Below are positions 387-13,377 of a DNA stretch of 13,377 nucleotides, piece by piece. The notes under the pieces are model-generated. The model ran no database searches. It saw only the letters and a list, made by a program, of their open reading frames with translations, and was not told where the DNA came from. Source of the DNA: an uncultured archaeon (lineage in GTDB: Archaea > Asgardarchaeota > Lokiarchaeia > Sigyniarchaeales > SOKP01); the NCBI GenBank assembly GCA_964508365.1, contig CAZDTP010000082.1:1-13377 (forward strand), written 5' to 3'. The first letter of the stretch is position 1. Each line of letters begins with the position of its first letter. A program made the translations under genes and the position numbers.

Positions 387-1844
387 CTATTTCTTATCTA
401 AATATTTATCCTGTAAATATTTGTCTATTGCATGTGCAGCTTTTTTTGCTGCTCCCATCGCTGTGATGACAGTAGCAGATCCTGTTACAATATCACCACC
501 AGCAAAAATTCCCTCAATATTTGTCTGACCATTTTCTTCTGTTTCGATGTAACCCCATTTATTCAATTTCAATTCGGGAATTGACTTTGTTAAGATAGGA
601 TTAGCTTTTGTTCCGATCCCGATGATAACTGTGTCGGTGTCTATTAGGTATTCAGAATCCTTAATTCTAATTGGTCTTCTCCTACCGGATTCATCAAGTT
701 CACCTAATTTCATTTTAATAACTTCCATTTGGCTTACATTATCGTTATCATCACCAATAAATCGAACTGGGTTAGTTAAAAATTGGAATTCTATACCTTC
801 TTCTAATGCGTGATGATATTCTTCCTTTCTTGCCGGCATTTCTGCTTCTGATCTTCGATAAACAACAATAACTTTTTCAGCTCCTAATCGTAAGGCGGTT
901 CTAGCAGAATCTAAAGCGACATTTCCCCCTCCTATAACAGTTATAATTTTTCCAATATTGATTGGAGTATCGTAATCAGGAAACTTAAAAGCCTTCATTA
1001 AATTTGATCGAGTGAGGAATTCGTTAGCAGTTAAGACGCCATTTAAGTTTAATCCTGGTACATTTATAAATATTGGAAGTCCTGCTCCAACTCCAATAAA
1101 AAAGGCTTTAAATCCCATTTCTTTCAAATCTTCTAATGTTAAAGTTTTACCAATAATTACGTTATATTCGAATTTAACCTTTAGCATCTCTAAAGTCTCA
1201 ATTTCACTTTTAATTATTTCTTTAGGTAATCTAAATTGGGGTATTCCATAACTCAGGACTCCACCACCGATGTGGAACGCTTCAAAAACAGTAACATCAT
1301 AACCGCTCATTGCTAGTTCTCCAGCACAAGTTAGTCCTGCCGGTCCTGCTCCTATAACTGCTACTTTAATCCCCTTTGGAACTGCGCATTCGGGAAACTC
1401 TTTAAGATTATTTTTTCTTTCCCAATCCGCGATAAACCTTTCTAGTTGACCAATAGCGATTGGTTCTCCAAGTTTATTCAAAACGCACGCTTGTTCACAT
1501 TGAGTTTCTTGAGGACACACTCTCCCGCAAATTGCAGGTAATAAATTATCCGTTTTTATCTTGTAGAGGGCTTTTATGTATTTTTTTTCTTTTAATAGTT
1601 TAATGAATTGAGGTATTTTGATGTTAACAGGGCACCCAGCAACGCAAAGAGGATTTTCACACTGTAAACAACGCTGAGTTTCTAATTCAACCATTTCTTC
1701 TGTTAATCCTAACGACACTTCTTCAAAATTTTTGATCCTTACACTTGGATCTTGTTCTATCATTTTAGGTCGTTTTTTAATCTTCCTTTTTTTTTCCCCC
1801 TTCTTATTATTTAATACGTCTATTGATGATCTCTGATTTTCCAC
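387..1844 (-). CDS. nfnB: NADH-dependent reduced ferredoxin:NADP+ oxidoreductase large subunit (NfnB/SudA/GltD-like)
   Basis: FEEVSLG..RCLQC, CVAGCP and CGRVCPQETQCEQAC (two [4Fe-4S]); FAD motif GAGPAG; second Rossmann GGGNVALD..VYRRS (NADPH-type); GGD..G..TVI.AM. GTG start with GAGGTGG 6 nt upstream. Adjacent to nfnA. Confidence 0.9.
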   Translation of the reverse strand: MENQRSSIDVLNNKKGEKKRKIKKRPKMIEQDPSVRIKNFEEVSLGLTEEMVELETQRCLQCENPLCVAGCPVNIKIPQFIKLLKEKKYIKALYKIKTDNLLPAICGRVCPQETQCEQACVLNKLGEPIAIGQLERFIADWERKNNLKEFPECAVPKGIKVAVIGAGPAGLTCAGELAMSGYDVTVFEAFHIGGGVLSYGIPQFRLPKEIIKSEIETLEMLKVKFEYNVIIGKTLTLEDLKEMGFKAFFIGVGAGLPIFINVPGLNLNGVLTANEFLTRSNLMKAFKFPDYDTPINIGKIITVIGGGNVALDSARTALRLGAEKVIVVYRRSEAEMPARKEEYHHALEEGIEFQFLTNPVRFIGDDNDNVSQMEVIKMKLGELDESGRRRPIRIKDSEYLIDTDTVIIGIGTKANPILTKSIPELKLNKWGYIETEENGQTNIEGIFAGGDIVTGSATVITAMGAAKKAAHAIDKYLQDKYLDKK

Positions 1845-1845
1845 T

Positions 1846-2730
1846 CTAATCCACCTCTTTGTTATATTTTTCTAACGCCCTACACTTTTCGTCGTACCAT
1901 TCTAATGAATGTTTTTCTTGTTCAAGAAACCTATTGGCGCGTTTTAAAAGATTATCAAAATCTACAATGTGTCCATCAACATCGGGACCATCGACACACG
2001 CAAACTGGACACCCCCATCAAGAGTAGAAAACCTACAACTTCCACACATCCCCGTTCCATCAATCATTATCGTGTTCAAAGAGACAAAGGTTTTTACTTT
2101 GGGTAAACCCCCTGATCCATTAGTTGTAAGGACAACATACTTCATCATTATCAAGGGTCCAATTGTGATAACTAAGCTTATTTTTTTTTTCTTAATAATC
2201 TCTTTTAATGGATCAGTTACTACACCCTTTATCCCTTCGCTACCGTCATTTGTAGTAATTATTAATTCATCGCTCACAGAATCCATCTTATCTCTCCAAA
2301 TTAATAATCCTTTACTTCTAGCACCCAATATCGTGATAATCTTATTACCTGCTTCTTTTAGTTCTTTTGCTTGAGGGTAACAAGCTGCTATCCCAACTCC
2401 TCCGCCAATTATTGCTATTGGATGTTCGTATTTCTCAATGTGAATTCTATTCCCTAAAGGTCCTACGACATCTAGAATCTTATCACCGACTCTTTGATTA
2501 CAAAGTAATTTAGTGCTTTTACCCACTACTTGAATTACAAGCGTTATCGTTCCATTTTCCCGATCGTAATCGGCAACTGTTAGCGGAATTCTTTCTCCCG
2601 TTTCATTAACTCTAATAAGAACAAAATTTCCTGCATAGGATTTTTTAGCTATTAGTGGCGTTTTTAATACCATTTCAAAAATTGTTCTACTATTTCCAAG
2701 TTCAATTTTCTCAAGAATTTCATAAGGCAA
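1846..2730 (-). CDS. nfnA: Nfn small subunit (NfnA/SudB, PyrK-like FAD/NAD-binding, [2Fe-2S])
   Basis: ERIPLTVAD, VVGKST, DVVGPLG, GGGVGIA, TIGPLIMM, and the [2Fe-2S] motif DGTGMCGSCR...ACVDGP. TTG start is uncertain (see findings). Confidence 0.9.
   Translation of the reverse strand: MPYEILEKIELGNSRTIFEMVLKTPLIAKKSYAGNFVLIRVNETGERIPLTVADYDRENGTITLVIQVVGKSTKLLCNQRVGDKILDVVGPLGNRIHIEKYEHPIAIIGGGVGIAACYPQAKELKEAGNKIITILGARSKGLLIWRDKMDSVSDELIITTNDGSEGIKGVVTDPLKEIIKKKKISLVITIGPLIMMKYVVLTTNGSGGLPKVKTFVSLNTIMIDGTGMCGSCRFSTLDGGVQFACVDGPDVDGHIVDFDNLLKRANRFLEQEKHSLEWYDEKCRALEKYNKEVD
1851..1857 (-). promoter_or_regulatory. Shine-Dalgarno-like GAGGTGG for nfnB, inside the 3' end of nfnA
   Basis: Lies 6 nt upstream of GTG 1844. 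The nfnA stop TAG (1846-1848) is 1 nt from the nfnB start, suggesting translational coupling. Confidence 0.6.
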
Positions 2731-2844
2731 ATTTCATCTATACTCCTATTTATTAAAATAATTATAACCAATTTCTAAGTGATGTAAAGTATAAAAATTA
2801 TTTAATGTTGTTATAATAGAGGGAAATAGAATCGGTTTTAAAAT

Positions 2845-5607
2845 TTACTGCATAAAGAGCATTCTACCAATAAAAGTTAGTAAGTCAATTACTTGAATTT
2901 TATTTTTTAGCTCTTTATTCTCGTTTAGATAACAATTTAAATGCGTTAAGCATTTTGGACAAGTTGTAATTAAGTAATTTGCACCAGTTTCGATTGCTTG
3001 CTTTATTCTCGATTCTTGCAATTTCTTTGAGTTTTGATTACATGAAATATAGGCAGATACTCCGCAACAATCAGCGTCAACCTTATTATGCTCCATTTCA
3101 AGTAGCTTTATGCCCTGAATTTGTTTTAGAACTTCACGAGGTGCGTCATAAACATCACTCATTCGACCAAGTCTACATGGATCGTGGTAAGTCACTTTAA
3201 TTTCTCCCAAATTTGGAAAGGATATATCTTCTAATAGATTCTCATTCATAATATACTCTGAAATGTGATATAGTTCGAAGTCAAACTCATCGCTTTTCTC
3301 AAAGAGATTTCGGTAATCATTATTCCAGGTGTAATAACCTTCAGGACAGCTAAAAACGATAGTTTTCACTCCAGCATCTTTAAACAACTTAACATTATAT
3401 CTTGCTAACTTCTCAAAAGATTCTGTATCGCCCTCCCAGATGATATCGTGTCCGCAACACTTTTCCTCTGGTAAAACAACAGGTATAATTTCGTTGTGAT
3501 TCAATATACCAATTACACTCTTAGGAATAGTAAGATAATCTGTAGCGTTGTATGAACGCATGTTATCTTGGTTTCCATAATTACAAACCATAATTCCAGT
3601 AGAATCAAGAGCGGCAGTATAATCCTCGGGGATCTGATCAGTATTACTGCAACAATTACAATTTAAACACCTATTTGCTTCCTTTTTCGCTTGTTCTTCC
3701 GTGTAACCTAATTCCATCTCTTCAAAACAAACTAAACGTTCTTCACCCGGCATAAAGTTCATTTCTTGACAGGCGTTTACTTGGATATTTTTTTTAGGAA
3801 TAGTAGATCTCTTAAGATCTTTTGTTCTAATCCTTCCTTCTTTTAAATCAATTCCACGTAAGTAGCGATCGATTGAATATGCGGCTTCTCTTCCGTCTCC
3901 AATTGCGTCAACAGCGCACATTAGCGAATCGAATATTATATCTCCCCCAGCAAATACTCCTGGAATGGTAGTTTCATAAGTTAACTCGTCAACTACTATT
4001 TTTCCCCTATCAATTTTTAATTTATTTTCAGTTGCGGCATTAATAGGAACCATATCAAGTCCTTGCCCGATAGCAATTACTACATAGTCCACAACAATCT
4101 TATAATCAGAACCTTCCACTTTATTTAGAGGTCTTCGTCCAGTTTCAGGATCAGGTTCTCCCCACTCAATCTTATAGCAATTTAGCGCTAACTTTCCATT
4201 AGGTTCTTGAGTAATATTCTTAGTCGAAGTAGTAAAATTATATTCCATAACTTCTCTCTCAGCCTCATGTAAGTCTTTAAGCACATTTTTAAGTGCTTCC
4301 TCAGTTAATATATCTACAAAATCGACTTTCGTAGCGCCCAATCTAACAGCAGTTTCGCCAACATCTACGGCAACTGCTCCTCCGCCGATAATTCCAAAAG
4401 TTTTACCTTTAAATTCTTCAGGATCTTCCGCACAATTATACTTTCTATCTAAGAGAAAATCTATAGCAACATGAACATTTGGTAAATCTTCGCCTTCTAA
4501 TCTCAAAGTTTTTGGTACATACAGACCTACCGCAATAAAGACAGCTTCAAAACTATCCTTTTTAAGATCTTCAAGAGTAAAATTCGGACCAAACTCTTTG
4601 TTCAGTACGATTTCAACTCCCATATGTTTTATGAAATCTACATCGTGATCCAACGCTTCGTCAGAGAGTCGATATTGCGGAACACCATATCTTACGACGC
4701 CACCGGTTTTATCCCCTTTCTCGAAAATTGTTGGTTTATATCCCATTCTCGCGAGGTAATAAGCAGCAGATAATCCTCCCGGTCCGGCTCCGATTATTGC
4801 TACTTTTTCCTTGGTTTGTTTAACTGGTTTTATTTTACTATTTTTTGGGTGAGCTGCTTCATAATCCGAAACAAACCTTTTGAGTTCTCTGATAGCTATA
4901 GGATCATCGTGATGTTGACGATTGCAATTCAAGGCGCACTGAGCTGTGCAAATTCTCCCACATAAATAAGGTAAAGGGTTCATTTCTCTTATCAAATCGA
5001 TAGACTCTTGAAACTTGCCTTCAGATATTAATGAAATATATCCTTGAACGTCCACTCCTGCAGGGCAACCAACGACACATGGCGCAGTTCCCGTTAAAAA
5101 TGGAGTGCAACCCATAAAATAAGCAATTTCTCCCTGGTTTTTTATTTTTAAACCTGTTCCTTCTAAGAATCCAAGCTTATTAGTGAATTTTATCTTATCG
5201 TCTGCCATTAATTTTGGTATACTGGAATAAACTCTGTCGTGATTACAACTACGCAAAGTCTCTTGTAATGGTTCGTATTCTGAAGTTAATGTTCGAAGTT
5301 CCTTAATAATTTCTGTAAAGTTGACCCCGGTTTTATCTTTAGTCATTGGACAATATTCTGTGCACAATCCACAAGTTAGACAATCCCAAATATTATTATT
5401 CTTTAGTGCTTCTTCAGGTGATAAAAAGGTTAAATCTGTGATTAAATTTCTCGGATAAAATAGATCTAAGTAAGATACTGGACATACATTTACGCAACGA
5501 TTGCAATTATAACAATAGTTTGCGTTAGCAATGACGTTTTTTATGATATCGCTTGAGAGTATCTTATCAGCTTTCTTATTTTGTGATGTATCCGTAGTTT
5601 CAGTCAT
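2845..5607 (-). CDS. HdrD-like protein (2x[4Fe-4S] + two CCG domains) with a GltD/NfnB-like FAD/NAD(P) module inserted in the first CCG domain
   Basis: aa 32-87: CYNCNRCVNVCP and CLTCGLCTEYCP. aa 163-167: YFMGC. aa ~175-650: APCVVGCPAG, CGRICTAQC, GAGPGG, GGGAVAVD, FAGGD, EANRCLNC. aa 717-757: CCGHD..SCPEG. aa 807-886: YHDPCRLGR..CCG..TCPKC. Confidence 0.85.
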   Translation of the reverse strand: MTETTDTSQNKKADKILSSDIIKNVIANANYCYNCNRCVNVCPVSYLDLFYPRNLITDLTFLSPEEALKNNNIWDCLTCGLCTEYCPMTKDKTGVNFTEIIKELRTLTSEYEPLQETLRSCNHDRVYSSIPKLMADDKIKFTNKLGFLEGTGLKIKNQGEIAYFMGCTPFLTGTAPCVVGCPAGVDVQGYISLISEGKFQESIDLIREMNPLPYLCGRICTAQCALNCNRQHHDDPIAIRELKRFVSDYEAAHPKNSKIKPVKQTKEKVAIIGAGPGGLSAAYYLARMGYKPTIFEKGDKTGGVVRYGVPQYRLSDEALDHDVDFIKHMGVEIVLNKEFGPNFTLEDLKKDSFEAVFIAVGLYVPKTLRLEGEDLPNVHVAIDFLLDRKYNCAEDPEEFKGKTFGIIGGGAVAVDVGETAVRLGATKVDFVDILTEEALKNVLKDLHEAEREVMEYNFTTSTKNITQEPNGKLALNCYKIEWGEPDPETGRRPLNKVEGSDYKIVVDYVVIAIGQGLDMVPINAATENKLKIDRGKIVVDELTYETTIPGVFAGGDIIFDSLMCAVDAIGDGREAAYSIDRYLRGIDLKEGRIRTKDLKRSTIPKKNIQVNACQEMNFMPGEERLVCFEEMELGYTEEQAKKEANRCLNCNCCSNTDQIPEDYTAALDSTGIMVCNYGNQDNMRSYNATDYLTIPKSVIGILNHNEIIPVVLPEEKCCGHDIIWEGDTESFEKLARYNVKLFKDAGVKTIVFSCPEGYYTWNNDYRNLFEKSDEFDFELYHISEYIMNENLLEDISFPNLGEIKVTYHDPCRLGRMSDVYDAPREVLKQIQGIKLLEMEHNKVDADCCGVSAYISCNQNSKKLQESRIKQAIETGANYLITTCPKCLTHLNCYLNENKELKNKIQVIDLLTFIGRMLFMQ

Positions 5608-9194: not shown

Positions 9195-9836
9195 ATGACA
9201 AATTTAAAAATTTTGGAAGATTTAAAAAAAGCAGTTCTTGAGGGGGACGATGATATTGCTCAAGAACTTGCTCAAAAGGCTTTAGAACAAGATATAGAAC
9301 CGATGATTATTGTAAACCAAGGTATTATCCCTGGAATTCAAGAAGCTGGAGAGCTATGGAAGCAAAATGAATATTTTCACACGGATATTATTTTATGTGC
9401 TGAAGCTTTCCGTTTGGCTATGGAAATTATCGAACCAAAACTTTCAGCGGGAGAAAGAGGTTCTTCTGGAAAAATAATAATCGGAACAGTTGCGGGAGAT
9501 ATGCATAATTTGGGTAAGATCATGGTTAATGCGACTCTTCGAGGAGGAGGTTTTGAAGTTATTGATTTAGGAGAAGATGTATCGAAAGAGACTTTTATAC
9601 AAACAATTAAAGAAGAAAAACCAGATATTTTGGGTTTAGGATGTTATATGACGACAACAATGCTAGAGATGAAAGAAATAGTCAAACAACTTGAAAATGA
9701 AGGATTGAGAAACAGTGTTAAAGTTTTAATTGGTGGAGTACCTTGCACTCAAGAATTTGCTGATGAAATAAAAGCTGATGCTTGGGGTAAAGACGCATTT
9801 GATGCAGTAGAAAAAGCGAAAGAGGTTATGGGGTGA
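9195..9836 (+). CDS. Corrinoid (cobamide-binding) methyl-carrier protein, MtaC/MtbC/MttC-like
   Basis: N-terminal cap (AVLEGD..GIIPGI..GELW); IIGTVAGDMHNLGK (DxHxxG, H104); GFEVIDLGEDV; MTTTM; KVLIGG. GGTGGT at 9183-9188 upstream. Confidence 0.92.
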   Translation: MTNLKILEDLKKAVLEGDDDIAQELAQKALEQDIEPMIIVNQGIIPGIQEAGELWKQNEYFHTDIILCAEAFRLAMEIIEPKLSAGERGSSGKIIIGTVAGDMHNLGKIMVNATLRGGGFEVIDLGEDVSKETFIQTIKEEKPDILGLGCYMTTTMLEMKEIVKQLENEGLRNSVKVLIGGVPCTQEFADEIKADAWGKDAFDAVEKAKEVMG

Positions 9837-9842
9837 TTTAAT

Positions 9843-11432
9843 ATGGCTCAAACAGGAGAAGTGAAAAAGGATTTAGGAAGTGTTCTTTCAGCTGGAGATA
9901 AAGGATATATTTCTATTTTAGCTCAATGCCATGATCATGTAATGTATTTAGCAGAAGTTCCAGCTAAACCCTTCTTTACTGATTTTAATTTAAATTTTGA
10001 AATAGGTGGATTAGTGGGAAAATATTATGATTTAGATGGTCCAGCAGGAGGATATGATTCCTATGATTTAGAAGTAGAAGCGTTAGGAGGTAAATTAATT
10101 TATGGCGAAAATTCTATGCCTACTATTGATTTCCGTCAACCATTAATTAAGAACTATGAAGATTTAGAAAAATTAAAAAATAAAAAAATCGATTTTCAGA
10201 ATGCTGGACGCTTTCCGATGATCTTAAATACTAAAGGCTCAATGGCGAGTGGAATGTGCATATTTTGCTCGCCTTTTAGCTTAGCAGTTGGATTGATGGG
10301 ATTTCCAAAACTCATTAGAGCAATGAAAAAGGACCCAAAATTATATCATGGAGTAATGAGTTTTGCTGTTGATGATGTTTTAGCACCTTGGATTAGGATT
10401 CAAAACGAGACAACGGGTAATTTATTGGGAATAGGCGCTGATGCTTGGGCTAGCGTTCCAAATCTATCACCCAAAGAAATGATGGATTGGATTGTTCCCT
10501 ATAATCAACGACTCGACAAAAAATGTAAAGAATTTGGATTAATAACTATGAATGTCACTGGAGATTATTGTGAAGAACGATTGGAAAAATTTGATCCAAA
10601 AATACTTCATGATAGTTTTGATGTAGAAATTGCGAGTATGGGTGGCCAACCAGCATTATTCTTAGTAATGGGTCGATGGCACGAATACCCTCTTAAGGCA
10701 GTACGCGACTACACTGAGAAATTCCGAAAAGAAGGTAAAAATGTATCAATAACAGCAGGGATAAATGCTCGATTACTCCGTGATGGACCCATAGAGAAAA
10801 TTGTAGATAATATCAAAAGATTCATTGATGCCTTTGGACGAGATCATAGCCTAAGTATTATATTATCAAACATTCCTGCAGATACTCCTTCGGAACACAT
10901 TCATGCGGCAGTAGCTGCAACTCATACCTATGGAAAGTTCCCTATCGCAGATAACCTAGACGAGATTGAATTAAAGATTCCAACAAAAAAACCATTTAAA
11001 GAATGGAGAATTGAGAACGAATCTATTGTAAAAGCTAAAATGAAAGAAGAAGCTAAAAAAGAAAGATGCGGTCTTGCTGGATTACTCTGGCAACAAATGG
11101 GACAGATAAACCAAAATAAAAAATTCAAAGAAAATTATGCCGATGCAAAGATGAGTTTTCTATACAATCTTACGGATCAACGCTATAGTGCGTTAATTAC
11201 AGTTGAAAACGGAACTCTAGATGTGAAACACATTGAAAACGACGGGGACACCATAAAGAATATGGTAGTTGATGGTTCAATAGCTTGCACTGCAAGTTTA
11301 TTTTTTGACTTTACGGGTGGTAAGATATCTAAGGTTTCAATGCTACTTAAGATGCTAACTGGTAAGTTAAAAGTTAAGGGAATGAAGAAAATGAAAGAAT
11401 TAGGTAACATTATGTCTCTTCTAACCGAGTGA
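9843..11432 (+). CDS. UroD/MtaA-fold (cobamide methyltransferase-like) protein fused to a C-terminal SCP2-like domain
   Basis: aa 1-365: DLEVEALGGK, SPFSLAVGLMG..LIRAM..DP, D..AS...LSP...WIVPY, L..GP.E.I, IPADTP.EHIHAAV. aa ~409-529: end in MLTGKLKVKG, typical of SCP2 folds. GGTGA at 9832-9836 overlaps the corrinoid gene stop. Confidence 0.75.
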   Translation: MAQTGEVKKDLGSVLSAGDKGYISILAQCHDHVMYLAEVPAKPFFTDFNLNFEIGGLVGKYYDLDGPAGGYDSYDLEVEALGGKLIYGENSMPTIDFRQPLIKNYEDLEKLKNKKIDFQNAGRFPMILNTKGSMASGMCIFCSPFSLAVGLMGFPKLIRAMKKDPKLYHGVMSFAVDDVLAPWIRIQNETTGNLLGIGADAWASVPNLSPKEMMDWIVPYNQRLDKKCKEFGLITMNVTGDYCEERLEKFDPKILHDSFDVEIASMGGQPALFLVMGRWHEYPLKAVRDYTEKFRKEGKNVSITAGINARLLRDGPIEKIVDNIKRFIDAFGRDHSLSIILSNIPADTPSEHIHAAVAATHTYGKFPIADNLDEIELKIPTKKPFKEWRIENESIVKAKMKEEAKKERCGLAGLLWQQMGQINQNKKFKENYADAKMSFLYNLTDQRYSALITVENGTLDVKHIENDGDTIKNMVVDGSIACTASLFFDFTGGKISKVSMLLKMLTGKLKVKGMKKMKELGNIMSLLTE

Positions 11433-11731: not shown

Positions 11732-12016
11732 GAATATTCACCTATTATACCTTTTTTTTAGTTTTATTAGTAAATGTTACACTCATTAGTTATAATCTTT
11801 ATTCCATTAAAATCTGGTTCGATTATTTTCAACTATAACAGTTCATGAAGAAAGTCTTAAAATCAAAATTAATCGTTTTAAAACTAATAACAATTGAATT
11901 TTAATAATAAGAACCATTTGCATGATCATAATTATTTAATCAAATACAATTAATACATATCGTTATAAGAAGAAACATTTAAAATTAGGAGGATATAAAT
12001 ATAAAAGGTGGAAAAT

Positions 12017-13377
12017 TTGTCTGAAGAACAGACCAATAGTAAACACAAAATCGGAGCATTTATATGTAGATGAGGAGTTAATATTGGAGGCATTTTAGAT
12101 GTGCCTAAAATTGTAGAAGAAATTGATAAACTCGATGATGTTTACGCTTACGAGTATTTAAATTTGTGTACGTCTGGAGGAGCTGAATTTATTAAAGAAC
12201 AAATAGACGAAAAAAAATTTGACAGAATAATTTTGGCTGCTTGAACTCCAATAACACATGAGCCAGTATTTCATGCCATTTTAAAAGAAGCAGGATTGCC
12301 ACAGAGATATTTGGAATTTGTAAACATTAGAGAACATTGTAGTTACGTACATCAAGCAATGGAAGTAAGAGATGAAGCTACACTTAAGGCAATAGAATTG
12401 GTAAAAGCAGGGATTTCAAGATCGCAATTTTTGGAAGAGATACCTACAAAAACAGTAAATGTAAAACCTACATGTTTGGTTATTGGTGGAGGGATTGCTG
12501 GTTTAAGTGCTGCAATTGATTTAGGAGATGCAGGATATAAAGTTTATTTAGTTGAAAAGAAAACTACTATCGGTGGTCGTATGTCTCAATTAGATCGAAC
12601 ATTTCCGACAGACGATTGCTCGATTTGAATTCTCGGACCTAAGATGCTTGAAGCTGATCGCCATCCAAATATTGAAATGCTTACTTATAGTGAAGTAGAA
12701 AAAGTCGAAGGATACATAGGTAACTTTAGAGTCCAAGTAAAAAGAAAAGCGCGATTTGTAATTGAAAGCGAATGTACTGGCTGTGGTGCATGTACGGAAG
12801 TATGTCCTATATACGTTCCTAATTATTTTGATGAAAATCTATCGGCTCGTAAGTGCATCGATATTTCATTTGCTCAAGCAGTTCCGGCAGTTTATGATAT
12901 TGTAAGAGAATCGTGTGTAGAATGTTTTGCATGTGTCGAGTCTTGTGATTTGGAAGCAATTGACTTTAGCCAACAAGACGAAATAATAGAACTTGAAATA
13001 GGAACAATAATAGTGGCAACAGGATGGGACATATATCAAGAAGACGATTATGGCTACGGAAAATACGAGAATGTAATCACACAGATCCAATTAGAAAGGA
13101 TCCTTGCTCCAAATGGTCCTATGTTCGGTCATTTGGTACGCCCCTCAGATAGAAAACGTCCAAAGAAAATATTATTCATTAACTGCGTAGGATCAAGAGA
13201 TATAAAAAAGAATGCATATTGTAGCGTAGTTTGCTGTAATTTATCTGTTAAGAATTCCAAACTTATAATCTCAGAATATCCCGATTCCGAAATTACCGTA
13301 TGTTATATAGATATGAGATGTGGGGGGAAGATGTATGAAGAGTATTATAAAAGAGCCAGAGACGCAGGAATTCTTTT
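12017..13377 (+). CDS. hdrA: Heterodisulfide reductase subunit A-like selenoprotein with three in-frame TGA (Sec19, Sec76, Sec204); 3'-truncated by window edge
   Basis: TTG 12017 (or GTG 12008) opens one frame whose only stops are TGA 12071, 12242 and 12626. Motifs: FICRUGVNI, LCTSGG, AAUTP, VNIREHCSYVH, GGGIAG, GGRMSQLDRTFPTDDCSIUILGPKM, CTGCGACTEVCP, CVECFACVESC, NCVGSRD, YCSVVCC, YIDMR. AGGTG at 12006-12010 fits as an SD for TTG 12017. Confidence 0.93.
12071..12073 (+). other. Predicted selenocysteine codon 1 (C-R-U-G-V-N-I)
   Basis: TGA sits at the second Cys of the HdrA N-terminal CxCGxNI motif. Confidence 0.85.
12242..12244 (+). other. Predicted selenocysteine codon 2 (A-A-U-T-P)
   Basis: TGA sits at the Cys of the HdrA AAC(S/T)P motif. 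Confidence 0.85.
12626..12628 (+). other. Predicted selenocysteine codon 3 (D-C-S-I-U-I-L)
   Basis: TGA sits at the second Cys of TFPTxDCxxCILxP, the position known to be Sec in Methanococcales HdrA. Confidence 0.92.

Follow-up and report, generated by a model that had tools for sequence, protein, structure and literature searches.

Three in-frame UGA codons, almost certainly read as selenocysteine, in a partial hdrA gene at the end of a Lokiarchaeial contig

The use of selenocysteine (Sec) in HdrA of Lokiarchaeota was described in 2016, when the protein was found to carry up to four Sec residues at five possible positions, all of them conserved Cys and the canonical one always included, and hdrA was found in tandem with vhuD, with one Sec insertion sequence (SECIS) element common to both genes (PMC4989117). 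A later survey catalogued 1439 Asgard selenoproteins, among which HdrA and FrhD/VhuD were the most numerous (PMC11227280, 2024). The stretch of DNA analysed here, referred to as the window, is 13,377 nucleotides long (GenBank assembly GCA_964508365.1, contig CAZDTP010000082.1, from an uncultured archaeon of the Lokiarchaeia) and makes up the whole of contig C82 in a 4.07-Mb, 149-contig genome with a guanine-plus-cytosine (GC) content of 31.8%. Its last part (12017..13377, + strand) corresponds to the 5' two-thirds of an hdrA gene, and the sequence evidence indicates that three UGA codons within it are almost certainly decoded as Sec. The probability that the region is such a gene, in which Sec replaces Cys13, Cys71 and Cys197 (M. 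thermolithotrophicus numbering), is put at about 0.92. The gene is genuine and of a kind already known, as HdrA with several Sec was reported from Lokiarchaeota in 2016 and entered a catalogue in 2024; the original prediction, which had not regarded the class as new, was right on this point.

That prediction described a single frame of more than 450 codons interrupted only by TGA at 12071, 12242 and 12626, and stated that these codons replace Cys of the motifs CxCGxNI, AACxP and DCSxC. Both statements held on re-examination. Translation of 12017-13375 (+) with TGA read as U yields 453 residues without any TAA or TAG, and the only in-frame TGAs are codons 19, 76 and 204, at the three positions named. 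Standard calling of open reading frames (ORFs) recovers nothing of this frame except a 110-aa ORF (12296-12628) and a 244-aa ORF open at its 3' end (12644-13375). Translation would begin at a TTG codon at 12017, which is ATG in one orthologue, and a Shine-Dalgarno-like GGTGG (12007..12011, +) lies 5 nt before it and is kept in 5/5 close orthologues. Codons 1-453 of an expected ~657 are present, as orthologues are 657 aa long and the gene runs off the contig, whose end coincides with that of the window.

The identity of the protein is clear from comparison with solved structures. In phmmer searches of PDB sequences, residues 9-450 matched HdrA with E = 5e-148 (9sfi_A) and 4e-146 (5odc_A), and the best NCBIfam models were HdrA2 (579 bits) and HdrA (463 bits). 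As would follow from an incomplete gene of a non-methanogen, the HdrA2 score lies under the equivalog cut-offs. In the alignment with 5odc, C17 corresponds to C11, U19 to C13, C51 to C46, U76 to C71, C201 to C194 and U204 to C197, so that the TGAs align with the Cys of C-x-C-G-x-N-I (19), A-A-C-x-P (76) and D-C-S-x-C (204). The 9sfi sequence itself carries X (Sec) at the third of these sites.

The distribution of TGA among related genes was examined in an alignment of 36 HdrA paralogues and orthologues from the source genome and 30 relatives. Within the protein body, TGA occurs only at columns 19, 51, 76 and 204, and the alternative residue is always Cys; across ~85 paralogues and orthologues, the same four columns (C13, C46, C71 and C197 in 5odc numbering) recur, again alternating only with Cys. 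We infer that these are the non-ferredoxin Sec positions of the 2016 report (PMC4989117). Conserved Cys/Sec columns number 18 of the 453, which gives P ~5e-5 that three random codons would all fall in them. The expected alternation of TGA with Cys in orthologues was thus found, with only Cys opposite TGA, and the argument that three random nonsense mutations would be unlikely to strike conserved Cys alone is borne out by the same figure.

Conservation within the orthologue group, which comprises 48 named loci nearly all labelled as metagenome-assembled genomes (MAGs) of Promethearchaeota or Promethearchaeia, differs between the sites. U19 and U204 are kept in all 47 of the named loci that cover both sites, and U76 is present in 12 of the 48. 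All three TGAs recur in 11 orthologous loci of other Promethearchaeota MAGs. Sec at site 76 is a derived state limited to one subclade: the U76 loci in the tree, together with the gene of the window, account for 12 of 14 rows in a clade supported at 99%, and the tree requires at least three Cys/Sec changes at this site. Degeneration elsewhere in the gene among close relatives, which had been named as a sign of a decaying gene, was looked for and none was found. Comparison with the four closest orthologues gave 0.18-0.28 synonymous substitutions per site (dS) and a nonsynonymous-to-synonymous ratio (omega) of 0.03-0.08, indicating purifying selection, and omega was 0.01-0.27 for the individual segments after each TGA. 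One orthologue, L101:3001-4347 (JAWOFX010000186.1, Promethearchaeia BLK6-3.bin.141), has an extra, fourth TGA at the C253 column, the first Cys of a CxxCxxCxxxC motif in the inserted ferredoxin domain. It comes from a single MAG and may be a sequencing error; if real, Sec would occupy a site whose role as a [4Fe-4S] ligand is undisputed.

A genome that decodes UGA as Sec should possess the corresponding machinery, for which the original prediction had proposed a search, and all of its components were found. SepSecS (contig C19:8219-9595) matches TIGR03531 with 477 bits against a cut-off of 225, and EFsec (contig C19:1565-3007, -) has selB as its best match, with 238 bits versus 133 for EF-Tu. 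PSTK (contig C7:22050-22790, -) matches its model from end to end with 154 bits, and selenophosphate synthetase (SPS; contig C6:91537-92388, -) has an in-frame TGA of its own and is itself Sec-containing. The tRNA-Sec gene (contig C19:8044-8191, +), located by BLAST with intron-less genes of congeners, lies between EFsec and SepSecS. Two introns interrupt it, one of 28 nt within the anticodon loop and one of 30 nt within the T-loop. Once these are removed, the 90-nt RNA folds with -50.2 kcal/mol into an archaeal 9/4 cloverleaf with a UCA anticodon (loop CUUCAAA), a long variable arm and G73; compared with the congener, compensatory changes are seen in its acceptor stem.

This tRNA was not detected by ARAGORN, with or without introns, or by Rfam RF01852, either in the whole genome or in C19:1-20000, because its two introns hide the gene; pattern scans for tRNA-Sec were empty or too noisy. 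A search of 40 genomes found intron-less tRNA-Sec, scoring 51-67 bits, in 23 relatives and not in the source genome or its closest kin. Eleven congeners possess an intron-less tRNA-Sec gene. Another, GC-rich candidate in the source genome (contig C25:9846-10028, +) was rejected as an ordinary multi-intron tRNA with a 7-bp acceptor stem and a standard D-arm (~183 nt). Genome-wide, 14 tRNAs were detected without introns and 29 when one intron was allowed, so that much of the tRNA set is hidden from standard finders. In Lokiarchaeum, a T-loop intron in tRNA-Sec and linkage to EFsec have been described; that report gives one intron, in the T-loop, where the source genome has two (PMC4989117).

The 3' end of the operon can be approached through orthologues. 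In those with 95-97% identity, hdrA has 657 codons and a TAA stop and is followed after a 13-nt gap by vhuD/mvhD, and across orthologues the hdrA stop is TAA or TAG. From these relatives, the hdrA of the window would be expected to continue to ~657 codons and to end in UAA. The orthologous vhuD/mvhD (FlpD, E = 6.5e-42) has two in-frame TGAs and is followed by an FrhB/FdhB-like gene and then a ferredoxin gene; hdrBC is not adjacent to hdrA in these loci, and the FrhB-like and ferredoxin genes after vhuD stand there instead. A eukaryote-like SECIS element (lokiSECIS) lies ~10-20 nt past the vhuD stop and comprises AUGA, a 9-bp stem, an 11-12-nt loop opening with A-runs, and GA. In 42 of the 43 orthologous loci of full length, a pattern-plus-pairing scan located it 443-509 nt past the stop codon of hdrA, and its stems show many compensatory variants. 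The same pattern gave no match in the window, and hairpins after the three UGAs were not beyond chance in a test for bacterial-type hairpins (z = -0.98, +0.35 and +1.19). By analogy with the orthologues, a vhuD/mvhD with two UGA-Sec codons would follow ~13 nt past the hdrA stop, and a single lokiSECIS would recode all five UGAs of hdrA and vhuD. Because no local hairpin or SECIS was found in the window and the orthologous SECIS lies after vhuD, the five UGAs of the two cistrons would depend on one element ~2.4 kb from the first UGA, as in the genes described in 2016.

Two other accounts of the UGA codons have to be weighed against their decoding as Sec. The gene may be a pseudogene, or the product of an assembly or sequencing artefact, with the TGAs acting as real stops. 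The splitting of hdrA by gene callers, the ending of the contig within the gene and the failure to see its own SECIS would fit such an account, which is nevertheless extremely improbable given the recurrence of the same three TGAs in 11 loci of other MAGs, the low omega values downstream of them, a run of 453 codons of 35% GC DNA without TAA or TAG, and the confinement of the TGAs to Cys columns (P as above). It is also conceivable, though very unlikely, that UGA specifies a standard amino acid, Cys or Trp, through near-cognate decoding or reassignment of the code, as only Cys alternates with TGA and the insertion of Cys would fit this pattern too. However, TGA ends 13% of the ORFs of at least 300 codons in the genome, as well as two genes of the window itself (9195-9836 and 9843-11432), so that it is a regular stop and global reassignment is ruled out. 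ARAGORN detects no UCA-anticodon tRNA with or without introns; the sole such tRNA found is the tRNA-Sec that adjoins SepSecS and lies near EFsec, and a SECIS element is conserved after the operon in 42 of the 43 orthologous loci. Some observations tell against Sec decoding itself. PSTK and EFsec score below the NCBIfam equivalog cut-offs, which were built on methanogens and bacteria; a search of the genome assembly for the remaining third of hdrA, its vhuD and its SECIS yielded nothing but a paralogue and the contig end; and the SECIS is seen only in orthologues, at 68-97% protein identity. Decoding as Sec is the reading to which the probability of about 0.92 applies, with these observations included.

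The residues replaced by Sec fall into two parts of the protein. The N-terminal Fe-S domain (residues 1-140; 12017..12436, +), which holds the HA3 'shuttle cluster', was modelled separately with AlphaFold2 (AF2) as a flavodoxin-like beta-alpha-beta fold with a predicted local distance difference test (pLDDT) score of 80.8, and Foldseek matched it to the HdrA N-domains of 5odh, 5odc, 8rvu and 7bkd with template-modelling (TM) scores of 0.79-0.82 and a root-mean-square deviation (rmsd) of 2.2-2.5 A. A model of all 453 residues had a pLDDT of 57, was poor outside the N-domain and recovered only thioredoxin-reductase folds. In the N-domain, Cys17 (TGT; 12065..12067, +) is Cys in 34/34 homologues and never Sec, while at UGA-Sec19 (12071..12073, +) 28 of 34 paralogues have Sec and the other 6 have Cys. 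The column of Cys51 (TGT; 12167..12169, +) holds Sec in other paralogues, with counts of 11 Sec and 24 Cys, and UGA-Sec76 occupies 12242..12244 (+). These four residues correspond to C11, C13, C46 and C71; no other Cys of the N-domain is shared by the HdrA of methanogens and that of Lokiarchaeia, and in the AF2 model the four lie at the C-terminal ends of parallel strands 1, 2 and 3.

The remainder of the protein consists of a thioredoxin-reductase-like domain with ferredoxin domains. Its GGGIAG motif (GxGxxG; 12485..12502, +) would bind flavin adenine dinucleotide (FAD), and residues 153-194 match the Pfam families NAD_binding_8, Pyr_redox_2 and FAD. The DCSxU motif follows, in which Cys201 (TGC; 12617..12619, +) is Cys in 36/36 sequences and never Sec, and UGA-Sec204 (12626..12628, +), Sec in 34/36 paralogues, occupies the canonical HdrA Sec site, equivalent to Sec197 of M. 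maripaludis (PMC13518236). The sequence D200-C201-S-I-U204 is invariant in the HdrA alignment. An inserted ferredoxin domain (12773..12946, +) is recognised by Pfam Fer4 families and contains two CxxCxxCxxxC motifs, formed by C253, 256, 259 and 263 and by C300, 303, 306 and 310. Conserved columns and the 5odc alignment also mark a group of Cys in the thioredoxin-reductase-like domain, Cys390, Cys402, Cys406 and Cys407 (13184..13237, +), which we take to be probable ligands of cluster HA4. A C-terminal ferredoxin domain lies past the contig end; in the orthologue L068, Fer4 families match residues 129-179 of the last 200 aa.

Lokiarchaeia are not methanogens, and the protein would most likely be the core at which an HdrA-MvhD module, partnered by FrhB-like and ferredoxin proteins, carries out flavin-based electron bifurcation. 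In such a module, HA3, the mobile [4Fe-4S] 'shuttle' cluster of the N-terminal domain, would be ligated by Sec19 and Sec76 together with Cys17 and Cys51, Sec204 would belong to a Cys/Sec pair placed between HA3, MvhD and FAD, and the low-potential branch would then pass through selenium-ligated or selenium-bridged centres. This role for selenium lies outside the figure given above for the gene and has somewhat less than an even chance of being correct. If the cluster takes three to four N-domain ligands, at least one of Sec19 and Sec76, and probably both, must bind Fe, because only four Cys are conserved in the domain. Work by cryo-electron microscopy describes HA3/A3 as a mobile cluster that shuttles between FAD and the ferredoxin branch (PMC13580544, PMC13518236). 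A paper summarising the crystal structure has the N-terminal cluster bound by N-domain Cys and Cys197' of the partner HdrA (PMC9012536), with which ligation by Sec19 and Sec76 fits at the level of the domain. It is a tentative extension of these findings that the Sec-variable columns are the HA3 Cys of the N-domain (C13, C46 and C71) and the Cys197 that contacts HA3 from the partner subunit, rather than scattered catalytic Cys.

A different function for the inserted Sec, which would rival the mechanism only, is that the extra selenols are not Fe-S ligands and act instead as a redox-active selenol/selenenylsulfide relay. Published statements that weigh against selenium ligation of HA3 point in this direction. 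The 2016 report regards the extra Sec sites as conserved Cys that are not cluster ligands, speaking of 'multiple catalytic Cys' that do not coordinate clusters (PMC4989117), and the DCSxC/U pair has since been described as a separate dynamic centre outside the cluster, which binds an unknown ligand (PMC13580544) or, in M. maripaludis, forms a Se-S bridge between Cys and Sec197 (PMC13518236). Cys16 of MvhD has likewise been termed an 'additional' Cys. However, the 2016 statement preceded the structure of 2017, and the assignment of the N-terminal cluster to N-domain Cys and Cys197', as given in PMC9012536, speaks against the relay. So do the need of a cluster with three or four Cys for Sec19 or Sec76, when only C11, C13, C46 and C71 are conserved in the N-domain, and the position of all four sites at the strand ends in the AF2 model. 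The relay is accordingly a credible possibility, though one that we would not expect to prevail. Should ligation of HA3 by selenium be correct, two or three selenolates would bind the cluster of the window gene, and in the four-Sec paralogue every ligand of the cluster would be selenium; an Fe-S cluster ligated by Sec in nature would tune the low-potential branch of flavin-based electron bifurcation; and the view of 2016 that these residues do not ligate clusters would be contradicted.

The source genome contains further HdrA paralogues, on contigs C46, C53, C72, C92, C8 and C69, with 4, 1, 2, 2, 0 and 0 Sec, respectively. At columns C13, C46, C71 and C197, the pattern is UUUU in the paralogue of contig C46 and UCCU in those of contigs C72 and C92, and together with the three-Sec gene of the window the paralogues cover every level of Sec occupancy of these columns, from none to four. 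If the columns are indeed cluster ligands, which is a tentative proposition here as well, the paralogues of this one genome would constitute a graded sulfur-to-selenium ligand series on one cluster (CCCC, CCCU, UCCU, UCUU and UUUU). Paralogues with 0-4 Sec in one Lokiarchaeal genome provide a ready comparative series for the effect of selenium on an Fe-S relay.

Other genes of the contig were also inspected. Between AOR/ferredoxin genes and hdrA, the window encodes a corrinoid (B12-binding) protein and a 529-aa methyltransferase of the URO-D family (9195-11432, +). This cassette is absent from L068, a 97%-identical orthologous locus, where only a 270-aa ORF without a Pfam match is found. At 387-5607 (-), 6.4 kb upstream of hdrA, a gene for a 920-aa fusion of HdrC-like Fer4, GltD-like FAD/NAD(P) and two HdrB-like CCG domains adjoins an NfnB/GltD-like gene and an NfnA-like gene (FAD_binding_6 plus DHODB Fe-S). 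These genes look like a second, Sec-free module of the electron-bifurcation type on the contig.

The hdrA of the window is thus an ordinary member of a published class, and another example of the fragmentation of Asgard selenoprotein genes by gene callers. Its interest derives from HdrA structures solved after 2016, on which the Sec sites cluster on the electron-shuttling [4Fe-4S] domain and the Cys/Sec pair. What this pair does in electron bifurcation is a question that the structural work itself treats as open (PMC13518236, PMC13580544).

The gene can be compared with four described systems. VhuD/MvhD of the FlpD family, known from Methanococcales and Lokiarchaeota, is the partner that orthologues encode in the same operon and has two Sec, in motifs (C-x-x-U-G and G-U-Y-P) that resemble C-x-U-G and A-U-T-P of the HdrA N-domain. 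Both hhalign (E = 0.02) and BLASTP (E = 0.3) pair U76 of HdrA with the second Sec of VhuD, at values that are not significant, and the HdrA N-domain has no FlpD match in Pfam and a Foldseek TM score of 0.37 to 5odc_D, below those of generic flavodoxin-like folds. The all-Cys HdrA of M. thermolithotrophicus and M. marburgensis (5ODC, 5ODH, 8RVU) shares the domain order, every conserved Cys being present here as Cys or Sec, and the N-domain model superimposes with a TM score of ~0.8 and an rmsd of 2.4-2.5 A; it differs from the present gene in the three Cys that are replaced by Sec here and in the orthologue operon, which has FrhB-like and ferredoxin genes and no adjacent hdrBC. HdrA of Methanococcales, of the same family, has Sec at the same DDC-x-x-U site (M. 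maripaludis, PMC13518236; 9sfi). Unlike the window gene, it contains only the single Sec197, the sites of C13 and C71 being occupied by Cys, and it has an archaeal-type SECIS of its own. The methanogen enzyme also differs in reducing the heterodisulfide of coenzymes M and B (CoM-S-S-CoB). We know of no such substrate in Lokiarchaeia. The closest counterparts are the HdrA-VhuD pairs of Lokiarchaeota, which agree in lineage, in the canonical Sec near residue 200 and in extra Sec at conserved Cys (PMC4989117; PMC11227280). They agree, too, with the orthologues of the window gene in the UAA/UAG stop of hdrA, the two-Sec vhuD directly after it and the single SECIS after vhuD, built of AUGA, a 9-bp stem, an A-rich 11-nt loop and GA. 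Although the window copy ends at the contig end, nothing essential distinguishes it from these pairs.

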